A stretch of 64,000 bases of DNA from positions 96,001 to 160,000 of the forward strand of contig JAWVXD010000002.1 of NCBI GenBank assembly GCA_033723415.1. The letters are read 5' to 3'. Source of the DNA: Sulfurospirillaceae bacterium (GTDB lineage Bacteria > Campylobacterota > Campylobacteria > Campylobacterales > Sulfurospirillaceae). Position numbers and translations under genes: made by a program. Positions within the stretch are counted from its first letter, which is position 1. Every line of letters begins with the position of its first letter. The notes under the pieces are model-generated. The model saw nothing but the letters and a program-made list of their open reading frames with translations, made no database searches and was not told where the DNA came from. Of the stretch, positions 4,556-48,075 are shown piece by piece.

Positions 4556-4707
4556 GTATAATAAAGAATATCAAGATTAAATTTAGTTTAATACCTCAAA
4601 CAAATTAAACTAATATGATAAATTCTACACAAAGCGTGAGCTTATGTGATAGAAATTTGTATCAGGATAAGTTCCAATACAAAATACAATGAAAAAGGAA
4701 AGTAATG
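4556..4707 (+). repeat. Structured intergenic element, apparent diverged relative of the nuoB-nuoC insert
   Basis: Perfect 10-bp inverted repeat TTAGTTTAAT/ATTAAACTAA; stem capped by AAGC-GTGA-GCTT; 4624-4659 is 25/36 identical, ungapped, to 47521-47486 (minus). Confidence 0.5.
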
Positions 4708-41884: not shown

Positions 41885-44355
41885 TTTTCCGCACCTTTTA
41901 TAGTTACTTTTGAAAACCTATAGCCGTCTGTAAAAAACGGCATAACATCCAACTTTGTATCAAACGTAGGAAGATAAGGAATTTGTCCTTTTATCTGATG
42001 ATCCAGCTTCGTAGCAATGATCAGCTTTGCATCTCCGTTTGTTATCAACACAGGAGAACCGGCTTTGAGATCATGTTTTTCCAAGAAATCACTTGATACA
42101 TAAAGTGCACCTGCTTCATTTAGCTGATGAGCTTTATTTGTAAATGCACTAAACTGCATAACAGGATTTGCAAGATAGACAACCGTGCTATCTTCAAAGT
42201 CGATATCTTCTATCTTTTCTACATCATCACTCACCGCGCCAAGCTCTTTGTCATCTAGTAAGTACCCACGGTTTTCTAAGCCTGAATTTTCAAACTCATT
42301 TGGTAAAGAATCAAACTCTTCACTTTTATATAATTCTATAGAACTTAACTCTTTTGTATAATCAATCGTATTTTTGGCTTTTAATCCAAGAGCATTTGCA
42401 AGATCATTTAGACAATAACCTGCAAAAGGCACTGCTACATTTGTAGGGACAACTCTTTTATTCATAGAAGTAAATGTTCCCTCTTGCTGATTGAGGGCCG
42501 GCATATCCAGATCTGCTTTACCTAAAGCACTTAGCGTAAAATCAGCTTTTACATTGTATCCCAGTACTTTACTGCCTTCAGCCTCATCTAAATCACAAAT
42601 TAATGAAACACCCAAAGTATTTGTTTTTGACGGTATGATTAAAACATCAAAAGACGTATGTCTTTGAATTAGTCCTAATAGTTTTGATAGATTTGCTGCT
42701 CTTTTATGATTATATAAATCTTCTCCTGCTACAAGCGTAAAAGTATCTTTTTTATCTAGCATCTTCTCTAAAGTAGCGCTAAATTCTTCTTCGATGCCGA
42801 TGTTGTCAAAAAGTCTGTTGTAAACAACTTCGATCTCTTTTTCGACATTTTTGTTCACTTTTTTTACAACTTCTTTTTCTTCTCCGCTTTCTTCGTCTTT
42901 GACGATCTCTTTTACTTCTTCCTTAACTACTTCTGTAATAGTCTTTTTCTTTTTCTCATGAAAGCTCTCTAGATAATCTACCAAATCTTTTGATAATTCG
43001 TCTTTATTAGCAAATAGGTCCAAGACAAGATATAAGATGCTTTCTTCAACACCTACTTTATGGGCTACACTTGCAAAGTTTTTAGAGTAACCTTCAACTA
43101 CGCTGTCTGAAACAGGATGAAAATAAATTCCTGCCCCTTTATTCATGGTGACAGCATTATTGATCGCATATCCGACATTTGGATTATCTGTTTTAAATGC
43201 TGATCCGACACTTATTACAAAATTGCTGGCTCTTATCTTATTTAGATCAGCCGAATACAATGATTTTCCGCTGGTTGATCTAAACCCTTCCAAGAATTTT
43301 TTGTATGAAAAAGCGTCATGATTTACAAGTTTGTAACCAAATTTTTCTTTTAATCTTTGCAAGATAAGTGCTTCTTCATTGGTTATAAAGCTATCAAATT
43401 TGATAGTATCGGCACTCTCTTTCAAAAATTCGATCGCTTTTTTAAAAGCTTTTTCATCTTTTGCTTTTACTTCATTTTGAAAGTCGTATCCATACCTAAT
43501 CCCACCGTGAAGCGGAGCAAAGTTAAAATCACTGCTTACTCTGTATATCTTAGGATTTGGATTTTTTATATCAGTATGTTTTACGTCATAATAAATTAGT
43601 GAACAATCACTACTATGAGGATTTGAAGCAGGTATCTTTTTAAGCTCCCAAGCATTTGAAGTGTATTGGAAATCACTGCCTACAAGTGCTCCGACAGGAC
43701 AAACGGCAGTACATTCACCGCAATTTGTACAATCTAAACTGTCTGCATCGCTTGCTATACCTATCAAAGATTTTTGAAGCTTGTTCCACATCGCATATGT
43801 ATCTTTTGGTGCTTTATCTTTCCACTCTTTATCAAGTGCGTCTCCGCCTCTAGGAACGGTTTTGAGCGCCGCATCTCCGATCATATCCTTACATACAGTA
43901 ACACATCTCTCACAAACAATACATAAAGAAGAATCATAATGTATGAAACCCCAATCATGCGTCGGTCGGTGAGTATCGGCGATAGCAAAATCTTGTGTGT
44001 CGATGCCCATCTCAAGTGTATAGTTTTGAAGTTCACACTCTCCACTCTGATCACAAACTCCACACTCCAGCGGATGATTCAGATCATAGACCTTCATGAT
44101 GGCTTTTCGTTCAATCTCTATTTCTTCATTTTGAGTGATGACATCCATGCCATCCTTTGCTTTTGCATTGCACGAATATGCTCTTTTGCCATCTATCTCA
44201 ACCAAACACAACCTACAAGCTAATGTTGGAGAGCAGTTCGTTAAATAACACATAGCAGGTATGAAGATGTTATTTCTTCTAGCTATCTGAAGTATATATT
44301 CTCCCTCACTAGCTTCACATTTGATTCCATCAATAGTTACTGTAATATCACTCAT
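41881..44355 (-). CDS. nuoG: NADH-quinone oxidoreductase subunit G (epsilon type)
   Basis: CY...ACRLC, NHPLECGVCDQSGECELQ, CIVCERC and CTNCGECTAVCPVGAL. Confidence 0.96.
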   Translation of the reverse strand: MSDITVTIDGIKCEASEGEYILQIARRNNIFIPAMCYLTNCSPTLACRLCLVEIDGKRAYSCNAKAKDGMDVITQNEEIEIERKAIMKVYDLNHPLECGVCDQSGECELQNYTLEMGIDTQDFAIADTHRPTHDWGFIHYDSSLCIVCERCVTVCKDMIGDAALKTVPRGGDALDKEWKDKAPKDTYAMWNKLQKSLIGIASDADSLDCTNCGECTAVCPVGALVGSDFQYTSNAWELKKIPASNPHSSDCSLIYYDVKHTDIKNPNPKIYRVSSDFNFAPLHGGIRYGYDFQNEVKAKDEKAFKKAIEFLKESADTIKFDSFITNEEALILQRLKEKFGYKLVNHDAFSYKKFLEGFRSTSGKSLYSADLNKIRASNFVISVGSAFKTDNPNVGYAINNAVTMNKGAGIYFHPVSDSVVEGYSKNFASVAHKVGVEESILYLVLDLFANKDELSKDLVDYLESFHEKKKKTITEVVKEEVKEIVKDEESGEEKEVVKKVNKNVEKEIEVVYNRLFDNIGIEEEFSATLEKMLDKKDTFTLVAGEDLYNHKRAANLSKLLGLIQRHTSFDVLIIPSKTNTLGVSLICDLDEAEGSKVLGYNVKADFTLSALGKADLDMPALNQQEGTFTSMNKRVVPTNVAVPFAGYCLNDLANALGLKAKNTIDYTKELSSIELYKSEEFDSLPNEFENSGLENRGYLLDDKELGAVSDDVEKIEDIDFEDSTVVYLANPVMQFSAFTNKAHQLNEAGALYVSSDFLEKHDLKAGSPVLITNGDAKLIIATKLDHQIKGQIPYLPTFDTKLDVMPFFTDGYRFSKVTIKGAEK

Positions 44356-45179
44356 TAATTTTCTCGCTTAATAATTTTTGCTATTTTATAGTAATACGAT
44401 CCATCGCCATCAGCATTTGGCATTAATGCGACAGTGCCTTTAAGTTCATTATCCAACAAAAATTTTCTTGGATATTCCCCGGATTCTGTTATCACGAACA
44501 CTTCTTGATTATCTCCTATTTTGGCAGCTGTCATAAATTGACTTGAACCAAAGAGATATTCTTGTTCTTCGGCATCCAAACTAGGACAGGCATATACCAC
44601 ACACCCATCAAAACTGTGCAACTCTCCTATATCTTCTATCTCAAAATCATCACTTGCGCTTAACTGTATGCTCTCAGGTTTTGTGTAAATTTTAAACTTG
44701 CCGAACTTAACAAGCAAACTGATCAGTTTTGCTATGTTTTTATTTTTAGGGTGATTAAAAAGATCAGCTCCCACGATCATGATAGGGTTTTTAGTATTTT
44801 CGTATAAACTAAACATCTCTTCAATCTCTTCTTCTCCGACATTGCATTCAGCGCTTAGATACCCTTCATCTAAATTATCAAAAAAATCTTTTGTCTTGGC
44901 ATCTATTCCTTTGTTTGAAAGAAACTCTTTTGCCAAGATCGCCAACACGCCCTCTTCGCTGCCAGCTTCATATCTACTTTGAATTGTAGCGATTCCGGAC
45001 ATATTTACATCTTCTATAACATTTAGGTAAACTACATTTTTTTTATCTTTCAATAAAGAAAGCAATTCAACGTCTCTTGATGGCAATAATCCAATAACAA
45101 GAAAAAAATCACCATCTAGCTTGTCTGTAAAACTATCTTTATCTTTGATCTTCAAAAATGACATAAAGTTATCCCTCAA
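44355..45179 (-). CDS. Epsilon complex I subunit in the NuoF position (NuoY-like; no NADH/FMN motifs)
   Basis: YEAGSEEGVL and LDEGYLSAECNVGEEE; lacks the LRGRGGAGF and CGEET motifs of true NuoF. Confidence 0.8.
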   Translation of the reverse strand: MRDNFMSFLKIKDKDSFTDKLDGDFFLVIGLLPSRDVELLSLLKDKKNVVYLNVIEDVNMSGIATIQSRYEAGSEEGVLAILAKEFLSNKGIDAKTKDFFDNLDEGYLSAECNVGEEEIEEMFSLYENTKNPIMIVGADLFNHPKNKNIAKLISLLVKFGKFKIYTKPESIQLSASDDFEIEDIGELHSFDGCVVYACPSLDAEEQEYLFGSSQFMTAAKIGDNQEVFVITESGEYPRKFLLDNELKGTVALMPNADGDGSYYYKIAKIIKREN

Positions 45180-45414
45180 TCTTTGCCCCTGTATTCTTTT
45201 TAACGACTATAGTCCAATCAGCTTCATTGAATTTCAATGAATTCATAAGCTCATGACCTGCCTCTTTGATAACGTCCGCACTTTTTTGTATAGGCGAAAA
45301 ATCTCCAATTTCAAACATAAAGATCGAAACTTCGCCGTCTTTTGTCTCATCAACTATCTCAAGCATGCGATCATAGAACTTATCGCCCAAATGTCTCAAA
45401 TCATATCTTTGCAT
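45169..45414 (-). CDS. Epsilon complex I subunit in the NuoE position (NuoX-like)
   Basis: RYDLRH...FMFEIGDFS...LMNSLKFNEADWTIVVKK; 81 aa with no 2Fe-2S cysteines. Confidence 0.85.
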   Translation of the reverse strand: MQRYDLRHLGDKFYDRMLEIVDETKDGEVSIFMFEIGDFSPIQKSADVIKEAGHELMNSLKFNEADWTIVVKKNTGAKIEG

Positions 45415-46652: not shown

Positions 46653-47450
46653 CTATGGTCTCTCTTTTAAAGTTTTACTTGTATCTTTGCTCATTTTTTT
46701 AACCAAGAAAACACCACCCTCTTCTTGATAATCTGTTTTAACTATCTCTTGTGAAGGTTCAGCCCCAAATTCAACCTCATGATGAATTCTTGAGAAGTTA
46801 TATGTGTCACTCTCATCGATTCTGGCGCTGTCTCGATTTTCCGGTCCTATAATATCTCGATACTCTTTTCCGAAAATTTTATCTATCTCATACCAACTGG
46901 CTTCTTCATCTCCGTGAAGAGGATAAGTTTTACGAAGAGGATGTCCAAACCAATCATCAGGCATCAAGATTCTTTTCATATAATGATGTCCCGTGATAAT
47001 AACACCGAACATATCATACATCTCTCGCTCCGCCCAATCAGCACTTTTATATACGTTGGAAACGGTTCGGATCTCTCGTTTTTCCTTTATAAAAAACTTG
47101 ACTCTCATTCTTTTTCGTTTTGAGGTTGAGAGCATTTGGTAAAAAATTTCAAACTCTCCACTTTTTGCCAACCAATCTATAGCACTCAGTTCACTTAAAA
47201 AGTTATATTCCAGACTGTGTTTTAGAAAAGTCAAAACCTCGACATTATCACTTGCATTGATGTAAACTACAAGTTGACCTCTTTGAATATAAGCTTCTTT
47301 TATTTCAAAGATTTTTTTGAGTTCCATGACATCATTTGCGAATACTTCATCTGTTGAAACATCCAATTTCGGAACTTGAGGAGCTACCCAAAAGCGATCG
47401 GTGTAGTAAGGTTTTGGCTGTACGTCTTTTTTGTCTTGATATGGTCTCAT
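46653..47450 (-). CDS. nuoC: NADH-quinone oxidoreductase subunit C
   Basis: [11 protein letters not shown] and [18 protein letters not shown]. Confidence 0.97.
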
Positions 47451-47566
47451 TATACGCTCTCCTTTTTATTGAGCAGAGCCCAACAAAAATTCCTCTCACT
47501 GAAGCTACAGCTTTGCTGAGAGAAACTGCCTATTGTTTTAGAAAATTTTATATGTAGGCGTTTCAT
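47450..47566 (-). other. Structured insert carrying a 38-aa ORF ([38 protein letters not shown]) coupled to nuoB and nuoC
   Basis: Own translation: its ATG overlaps the nuoB stop (TAATG) and its stop overlaps the nuoC start (TAATG); GTATAATGA direct repeat at both junctions; internal hairpins. Confidence 0.6.
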
Positions 47567-48075
47567 TATACCAACCTCTTAGGTTTTAATTTTCTTGAAG
47601 CTCTCTCTTTCCTGATCTTCTTTTGTAAAATCATCAACGCATATTGCAGTGTTTCAGGGCGAGGAGCACAGCCAGGTAGATAAATATCTACTGGTATGAT
47701 ACGATCCGCTCCCTGAACTGTTGCATATGTATTAAACATACCGCCAGTATTTGCGCAACTTCCCATGCTGATGACCCACTTTGGTTCTGTCATCTGATCA
47801 TACAATCTTCTCATGAAGGGTGCATGCTTTTTTGTTAGAGTCCCTGCGATGATCAAAACATCGGACTGTCTTGGACTTGCTCTAAAAATAGTTCCAAATC
47901 TATCGAAGTCATATCTACTAGCACCTGTTGCCATCATTTCAATAGCGCAACATGCCAATCCATAAGTCATAGGCCAAAGAGAATTACTTCTTCCCCATTG
48001 GACTAATTTATCAACTGTAGTAAGAGCTATAGGAAGTCCGGCTTCTTGTAAGTAATTTATTTTATGCTGTGCCAT
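47566..48075 (-). CDS. nuoB: NADH-quinone oxidoreductase subunit B
   Basis: [23 protein letters not shown] and PGCAPRPE. Confidence 0.98.

Follow-up and report, generated by a model that had tools for sequence, protein, structure and literature searches.

The 116 bp that separate nuoB from nuoC in this Sulfurospirillaceae genome are best read as one copy of a dispersed repeat, made of two hairpins and carrying its own Shine-Dalgarno (SD) sequence and ATG. The repeat is likely a non-autonomous mobile unit directed to A/T-ATG-purine words, and it is likely kept at tight gene junctions only if ribosomes can read through it. We give this reading as a whole a probability of about 0.68. The window analysed here is a stretch of 64,000 bp. 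The genome under study is called G000, other G numbers designate the compared genomes and L numbers the loci of copies.

The nuoB-nuoC insert and its parts

On the minus strand, nuoB ends in GTA TAA TGA with 116 bp of insert ahead of nuoC, and the 9-bp direct repeat GTATAATGA is found at both 47563-47571 and 47447-47455. A micro-ORF spans the insert and shares TAATG overlaps at its two ends with the nuoB stop and the nuoC start. The direct repeat, the 116-bp insert and the 38-codon frame described in a sequence-only reading of this DNA are thus borne out, and the repeat, the ORF and both overlaps could be located. The features are as follows:

47566..48075, minus strand: nuoB (NCBIfam), the upstream host gene, whose TAA overlaps the micro-ORF ATG
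47563..47571, minus strand: left direct repeat GTATAATGA, comprising the host nuoB end and the original nuoC start
47450..47566, minus strand: micro-ORF of 38 aa plus stop, bridging nuoB and nuoC; no family match, peptide unconserved among copies
47522..47564, minus strand: variable 5' leader with the predicted hairpin P0 (arms 47555-47564 and 47522-47532)
47446..47535, minus strand: core repeat unit, matching model R1 at E 4.9e-13 (this copy is itself in the training set)
47505..47520, minus strand: hairpin H1, loop c(AAA)g, with compensatory changes
47490..47504, minus strand: conserved purine-rich linker, with one position covarying with the SD's second G (G·G or U·A)
47463..47489, minus strand: hairpin H2, whose 5' arm is the U-run formerly taken for a terminator tail
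47458..47464, minus strand: element-borne Shine-Dalgarno AAGGAGA, assigned from the sequence
47447..47455, minus strand: right direct repeat, containing the micro-ORF stop and the nuoC ATG
46653..47450, minus strand: nuoC (NCBIfam), the downstream host gene, starting in the second GTATAATGA
4610..4700, plus strand: second repeat copy, decayed, between ilvE and a weakly HflK/HflC-like gene; its SD is lost and a native SD follows

At the position of the left repeat, the empty sites of relatives read GT(A/G/C)T(A/G)ATG. The insert region folds better than shuffled sequences (z -2.67, with 2 of 200 shuffles as good), and 5' hairpins resembling P0 were seen by eye, their covariation uncounted, in recent copies of G055 and G117. 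The covariance models of Rfam 15 gave no match in the window (best E 4.3) and none at E <=0.5 in 12 loci from other genomes. The micro-ORF peptide has no match in Pfam and NCBIfam.

The second copy of the window corresponds to the model match G000:C2:100610-100700 (E 3.7e-8). It contains a 25-aa frame that begins 69 nt past the ilvE stop, and its HflK/HflC-like neighbour is named from family matches under the curated cut-offs. A related sequence had been placed at 4556-4707 by the sequence-only reading; it is real, but it lies at about 4610-4700 (+) and is a decayed copy.

In the same window, the nuoD–nuoG interval (44355-45414, minus strand) holds two ORFs: one of 81 aa, for which NCBIfam gave no match, and one of 274 aa, which matches NuoG in part. 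They stand in place of nuoE and nuoF, a replacement that is usual in Campylobacterota.

Copy number, layout and range

When the insert was compared with the genome by BLAST, many matches were obtained, all to its 3' part, and this stretch of ~85 nt is a dispersed repeat. An iterated profile search recovered 37 copies in G000 at E <=1e-3 and 0 in the reversed-genome control. A covariance model was trained on 35 copies, 30 from G000 and 5 from the nuoB/nuoC junctions of relatives. At E 0.01 it yielded 41 matches in G000, two of them in the window (47446-47535 and 4610-4700), so that the further genomic copies whose existence was to be checked are present by the dozen.

The unit is ordered as a variable leader, TCT, H1, the linker AGCTTTAGTGAGAGGAA, H2, GGAGA, a spacer and ATG. 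A same-strand ORF start lies near 38 of the 40 profile matches of G000, an ORF start on the other strand near 4 of the 40, and the orientation is sense in all 27 arrays located between co-oriented genes. The genes downstream are unrelated housekeeping genes with no common function. The repeat is not a system specific to complex I. Tandem arrays are frequent, 40 of 274 copies having another unit upstream. With respect to replication, 25 copies are on the leading and 10 on the lagging strand, with no clear difference from the genes (1154 and 813, respectively).

In an order-wide draw, matches were detected in 29 of 101 Campylobacterales genomes, G000 included, with 1 to 38 matches per positive genome and at most 43 candidates scored in each. 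In a phylum draw the repeat was present in 7 of 121 genomes, and it was not found in the genomes searched of the two dominant families of that draw (0 of 46 and 0 of 43). Six congeners contain 17, 83, 101, 99, 55 (in a 63% complete genome) and 76 matches, respectively, and one other genus of the same family contains 35. The nearest relatives of G000 are Sulfurospirillaceae or unclassified Campylobacterales. Six pattern matches were obtained in viral contigs, the best having a model E of 0.081, and no match to the repeat was obtained in the plasmids searched.

Empty and filled sites

The nuoB/nuoC junction is empty, the two genes overlapping by one base, in 25 of the 30 loci of one set and 76 of the 80 loci of another, the four filled loci of the larger set being the same sequences as in the smaller. 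Empty sites, by which the mobile origin of the insert was to be checked, are thus the common state in relatives, and the site is empty in the sister genome G013. At the five filled junctions the inserts measure 80 to 208 bp and all include the repeat unit, and in every one of them an open frame, or a chain of two, ends on the nuoC ATG. On a tree of 38 selected rows calculated with the junction left out, the five filled rows require 5 changes, forced by well-supported branches, gain and precise loss being indistinguishable on this tree. Five state changes at one nucleotide of a complex I operon would make the repeat a case of selfish DNA living in tightly coupled operons.

We also compared 55 ORFs located downstream of copies in relatives. 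The corresponding G000 site was empty for 31, filled for 13, and had no or only a weak orthologue for 11, in an uncurated comparison that includes two false ORF starts and counts four G000 sites twice. In G055 and G117, near-identical copies of about 130-140 bp, which start at or near ATGAAA and have an extra 5' hairpin, are found at unrelated genes; their near-identity points to recent spread.

Two covarying hairpins

Mutual information singles out H1 and H2. In the corresponding structure 85.6% of the cells are paired, double changes are found in 14 of 18 pairs and 0 of 500 shuffles are as good, counts that lean toward the structure since alignment A2 was its source and A3 was in turn fitted to it, and that are inflated by lineage bursts. 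Sliding the pairing partners lowers the pairing to 39-54%. When 73 distinct matches of other genomes are fitted to the model, the paired share of the cells is 95.2%, the metagenome copies having been found with a pattern that constrains the linker. The covariation check proposed by the sequence-only reading is therefore positive, for two hairpins other than those it had drawn. On the sense strand G·T exceeds C·A (65 vs 12), and the sense strand is therefore the folded strand.

The commonest loops are c(AAA)g for H1 (83 of 269) and c(TTT)g for H2 (130 of 299), their counts being likewise inflated by lineage bursts. The GNNA tetraloops of H1 are mostly GNYA, not GNRA; DNA-type loop stability extends from GNA triloops to GNYA tetraloops. 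The stability of GNA triloops is presented as a DNA feature in the accessible part of PMC3201870. The two commonest loops are reverse complements of each other, and each strand thereby carries one CTTTG-capped hairpin.

The outer helix drawn by the sequence-only reading was 55.5% paired in our first structure, where its register was imperfect. Better registers gave 70-86% of paired cells, with near-invariant columns and no covariation.

A G·G or U·A pair involving the Shine-Dalgarno

One further pair associates the fourth linker base 5' of H2 with the second base 3' of H2, which is the second G of GGAGA. Of 239 copies, 190 have G·G there and 38 have T·A. G·G, T·A or A·A is fitted by 229 of the 239, a number that averaged 167 and never exceeded 181 in 2000 shuffles. 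The switch between G·G and T·A recurs, a weak tree built from 236 copies showing 27 changes. Among supported independent pairs, 5.6 of 6 go in the same direction (median p 0.03), and 17 of the 38 T·A copies have a G·G copy as nearest neighbour. The next gene's start is supplied by 130 of 159 G·G copies and by 2 of 25 T·A copies.

Adjacent positions of the linker and of the SD mirror one another (G·G and A·A), which is the purine-motif triplex code as given in the accessible part of PMC4666352. The evidence for purine-motif triplexes in RNA is mixed, according to the part of PMC7583470 that is accessible. Searching for a third strand within the element, we found no column that covaries (mutual information 0.02-0.03 versus 0.48 for the pair, in 219 copies). 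A direct non-canonical pair is therefore as likely, and an intrastrand triplex is speculation on our part. The SD-linked covariation is directly testable.

On a bolder reading, which we hold to be unlikely, the repeat would be a structured single-stranded mobile unit with a targeting chemistry of its own, in which linker and SD would form triplex-code pairs (G·G, A·A, T·A) and which an enzyme of the host lineage would plant at ATG words. Of the enzyme candidates tested, the integron integrase is the best correlated. The unit would also be a portable ribosome-binding module, on as GGAGA and off as GAAGA, and would offer a tractable non-pathogen model for the movement of MIRU-like start-codon repeats.

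Ends and duplications

The 3' end of the repeat is fairly precise and its 5' end is variable. In 53 comparable arrays whose left ATG overlaps the upstream stop, the duplication spans 3 to 22 nt, the commonest length being 4 nt (15 of 53). A match of 5 nt to the left of the shared ATG was found in 7 of the 53, versus 1.7% of shuffled pairings, and duplications of at least 9 nt in 9 of them, where 5% were expected from shuffled pairings. Away from ATG overlaps the duplication extends up to about 60 nt. Direct repeats of at least 14 nt flank 18 of 195 solo copies versus 3 of 581 controls, at least 2 of the 18 being overlooked tandem units; these long repeats include SD-spacer-ATG repeats and 27-66 nt copies of the upstream gene's end. 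As a 9-mer, GTATAATGA has 27 occurrences in the genome. The 9-bp repeat put forward as a target-site duplication is thus real and longer than chance, but the duplication has no fixed length and is most often of 4 nt.

At L357, L326 and L340, and at L159, L392, L342 and L402, the unit is flanked by duplicates of the upstream gene's final 27-66 nt. These are two recurring loci, on different contigs, whose genes we take to be secF and lepA from their translation.

Duplications of such variable length, several long repeats that are exactly SD-spacer-ATG, the common tandem arrays and the lack of a linked enzyme in our searches would all agree with a spread by host recombination or template switching between SD-ATG microhomologies, gene conversion homogenising the copies and no dedicated enzyme being involved. 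This explanation leaves unexplained the conserved pairing, the loops and the G·G/U·A pair amid diverging stems, and it does not readily account for a patchy range of 0 to about 100 copies per genome. We regard it as rather improbable.

For the two-hairpin mobile repeat that we favour, the following course of events can be proposed. The element, folded as a single strand, would attach through its 3' end (W-W-A-T-G) to an identical word in the target, and in the process would duplicate a variable stretch, usually of about 4 nt and sometimes of 20-60 nt. Recombination between the duplicated ends would then produce both precise loss and tandem arrays. At the complex I operon, ribosomes ending nuoB would re-initiate at the former nuoC ATG, pass through the hairpins and re-initiate once more at the new SD and ATG, leaving the expression of nuoC-N roughly unchanged.

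Search for a mobilising enzyme

The sequence-only reading had suggested looking for a cognate transposase. No linked candidate was detected among the Y1, RT, IS110 and IntI searches. Y1 genes are present in 27 of 40 genomes, with and without the repeat, and in 5 of 5 congeners, and no copy was found at the 24 Y1 loci searched (12 with nothing below E 0.4, then 12 more). RT was matched in 4 of 5 genomes, with no RT match in G003, which has 76 copies, and IS110 in 1 of 5. Y2 was matched in 0 of 5, by a search that gave no match in any control.

IntI was detected in 10 of 21 element-positive versus 1 of 20 element-negative genomes, the groups having been picked by repeat presence and being confounded by kinship and habitat. 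It was also detected in 4 further high-copy congeners, two of the matches being partial. No IntI match was obtained in G000, G013, G108 and G117, and no copy was found near the 10 IntI loci searched.

The sole Y1 match of G000 is a 220-aa ORF (G000:C1:455-1114, minus strand) with short inverted repeats of its own, located among sequences that look attC-like by eye, though G000 has no IntI match. One gene downstream of a copy in G003 lies an open-ended ORF of 186 aa (L264:1-558, minus strand), which overlaps a partial match to the IntI family. A TnpB-like zinc ribbon beside one copy turned out to belong to topoisomerase I.

Expression, read-through and the micro-ORF

The repeat could instead have been domesticated as a cis-acting element of the mRNA, serving processing, stability or protein binding and tuning the gene downstream, its G·G or U·A state setting the use of the SD. 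The strict sense orientation at protein genes, the excess of sense-strand G·T wobble over C·A and the tolerance of copies within RNase P RNA are consistent with it, as is the repeated persistence of the pair in U·A copies without their own start (23 of 25, versus 29 of 159 G·G copies lacking one). Two observations count against our preferred reading and together fit a retained host function: part of the sites (13 of 44) are filled across genera, and copies without their own start still undergo compensatory changes. On the other side, the downstream genes share no function, most sites are not common to congeners and two copies are antisense in tRNA clusters; on thermodynamic grounds, GNYA tetraloops and c(AAA)g/c(TTT)g triloops suit folded DNA over RNA. 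We consider this explanation quite improbable.

A ribosome-dependent attenuator, making nuoC-N expression conditional on nuoB translation, was another proposal of the sequence-only reading. Both of its stems can be drawn: the nuoB/nuoC copy is able to form a long outer helix with TTTTTGTT behind it as well as an 8-bp anti-SD stem, and both appear in its minimum-energy folds. The fold that is conserved is a different one. The U-run forms the paired 5' arm of the covarying H2 and has at least 5 T in only 71 of 239 copies, no unpaired U-tract is present 3' of the conserved stem, and an anti-SD stem of at least 7 bp is found in 1 of 239. Moreover, the outer helix excludes H1, which covaries, and the insert is missing from 76 of 80 relatives. 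Attenuation is very improbable in the light of these counts.

Read-through was analysed in 237 arrays. Among them, 54 have an ATG overlapping the upstream stop and 98 are operon-like without such an ATG, the other 85 having no upstream gene close by, no start downstream or too little flanking sequence. At ordinary gene ends an overlapping ATG occurs by chance in 110 of 1395 cases. The frame opened by the left ATG reads through and is coupled to the next start in 44 of the 54 arrays versus 14 of 108 with the frame shifted in silico (62 of 81 versus 22 of 162 in a looser first pass), figures that are not formal p-values because the copies are non-independent. The spacing in coupled arrays is -4 or -1, and that of the nuoB/nuoC copy is -1.

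In these 54 arrays the leader measures 5 to 176 nt, and the left ATG enters the two open frames 26 and 26 times and the stop-containing frame twice; closed-frame copies are thus nearly absent where the ATG overlaps the upstream stop (2 of 54). The main frame is open in only 117 of the 239 copies. One linker codon specifies E in 172, D in 29 and A in 28 copies, and most changes in the linker codons are non-synonymous. Selection acts on read-through at each site separately, and the peptide product is incidental. A functional complex I-associated peptide, the last proposal of the sequence-only reading, has in its favour the open and doubly coupled frame, or chain of two, at 5 of 5 filled nuoB/nuoC junctions, but it is barely credible given junction peptides of 27-42 aa with frame switches, the equal use of two frames, the closed frames and codon changes just described, and the lack of a Pfam or NCBIfam match. 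For annotators, this means that many small ORFs of 25-45 aa in these genomes ('SFSERNF', 'ALVRGI') are by-products.

The claim of a small mobile element built to be non-polar in operons agrees with the empty sites, the recurrent gain or loss, the dozens of copies and the preserved coupling. "Filtered for non-polarity" describes it better than "built", because 98 of the 152 operon-like arrays are without an overlapping ATG.

Comparison with known repeats

The closest known systems are the mycobacterial MIRUs, which reportedly go back to Supply et al. in 1997. In the accessible part of PMC12548453, MIRUs are apparently mobile, insert at start codons, have an internal ORF coupled to the host gene and leave downstream expression little affected. 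Their units measure 53-77 bp at senX3-regX3 according to the accessible part of PMC4213456, which gives M. leprae and the M. tuberculosis complex as their range, where PMC12548453 speaks of 'many mycobacteria'. As in these partial accounts of MIRUs, the campylobacterial repeat has short units of similar size, dozens of intergenic sites, tandem arrays, insertion at start codons, empty orthologous sites and an internal ORF coupled downstream (44 of 54). MIRUs being compared by description only, the campylobacterial repeat differs by its two covarying hairpins, its own SD, the G·G/U·A covariation, the -1 and -4 overlaps, the variable duplication and the copies in RNase P RNA, rRNA leaders and tRNA clusters. 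By analogy, the repeat is one that works like a MIRU; yet we do not class it as a MIRU, because its host belongs to the Campylobacterales (Sulfurospirillaceae, Campylobacterota), outside the mycobacterial range of these descriptions, and because the likeness is drawn from descriptions, not from sequences.

With this repeat the MIRU strategy would be known from another phylum, in a form much richer in natural variation, as seen in genomes with up to about 100 copies, in the empty sites, in the covariation and in recent bursts. The targeting of start codons thereby becomes testable in environmental bacteria, and the copies could be used as strain-typing markers.

REP and REPIN sequences, associated with RAYT enzymes (Y1 HUH), are short, multi-copy, intergenic, hairpin-forming and tandemly clustered, with GT(A/G)G 5' of the hairpin. 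The repeat resembles them in being short, multi-copy and intergenic, in its hairpins and tandem clusters, and in small loops typical of folded single-stranded DNA. It differs in having no GT(A/G)G at the hairpin foot and no Y1 neighbour, and in its strict sense orientation at gene starts, not behind genes. The 4-mer before H2 is GGAA in 195, TGAA in 42 and AGAA in 2 of 239 copies, and GTAG is found solely at the 3' foot of H1, in 40 of 239.

Bacterial MITEs such as Correia/NEMIS and ERIC are non-autonomous, co-transcribed with their neighbours and polymorphic between genomes, and the repeat is alike in these three respects. In contrast to MITEs it has no fixed duplication length (3-22 nt at ATG overlaps, up to about 60 elsewhere). 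Terminal inverted repeats were not seen by eye in recent copies, the 5' ends being variable. In attC sites, the consensus RYYYAAC...GTTRRRY bounds a hairpin. The repeat shares with attC a folded strand that tolerates G·T, but this frame is present in only 2 of 239 copies per strand, and a GTT in the tail in 34 of 239.

A literature search, with few subscription papers in its scope, found no description of this repeat family. The family is not described in the accessible parts of PMC6429828, PMC11109978, PMC8632094, PMC12306157, PMC12817950 and bioRxiv 10.64898/2026.10.21.760802. The core motif is absent as text from the supplements of PMC6429828 and PMC8632094, and those of PMC11109978 and bioRxiv could list it unnamed. 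The repeat family is thus real and apparently undescribed so far; what the sequence-only reading called an undescribed system is nevertheless of a known kind, that of the mycobacterial MIRUs as they are presented in the accessible part of PMC12548453.

Copies away from start codons and variants

Several copies are located away from protein starts. In L410:1377-1782 and L338:149-554 the whole unit lies within RNase P RNA, in a variable helix whose site is empty in G000, and the leader and tail of these copies can pair, extending the stem. At L324 and L304, units stand directly before the first bases of the 16S and 23S rRNA genes, in sense orientation. The units at L351 and L412 are antisense, each lying between tRNA genes and joined to them at a tRNA 3' end read as its reverse complement; these two are the clear exceptions to the sense orientation. 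Five of the six junctions of this group read W-W-A-T-G-G, which suggests that the target would be a DNA word and that start codons would be favoured by this word together with selection.

A longer variant with an extra hairpin cassette in the linker was detected in 7 of 301 genomes (G000:C5:215060-215191, G000:C3:327660-327752 and L421-L430). It was considered as an autonomous parent and set aside, no inserted gene being present in the flanks inspected. The cassette is also found with no H2 behind it in G111 (3 copies) and G210, and on these sequences it may be a separate small repeat. Finally, L174, L181, L182 (G055) and L292 carry another hairpin, about 40 nt long, inserted at that point of the linker.
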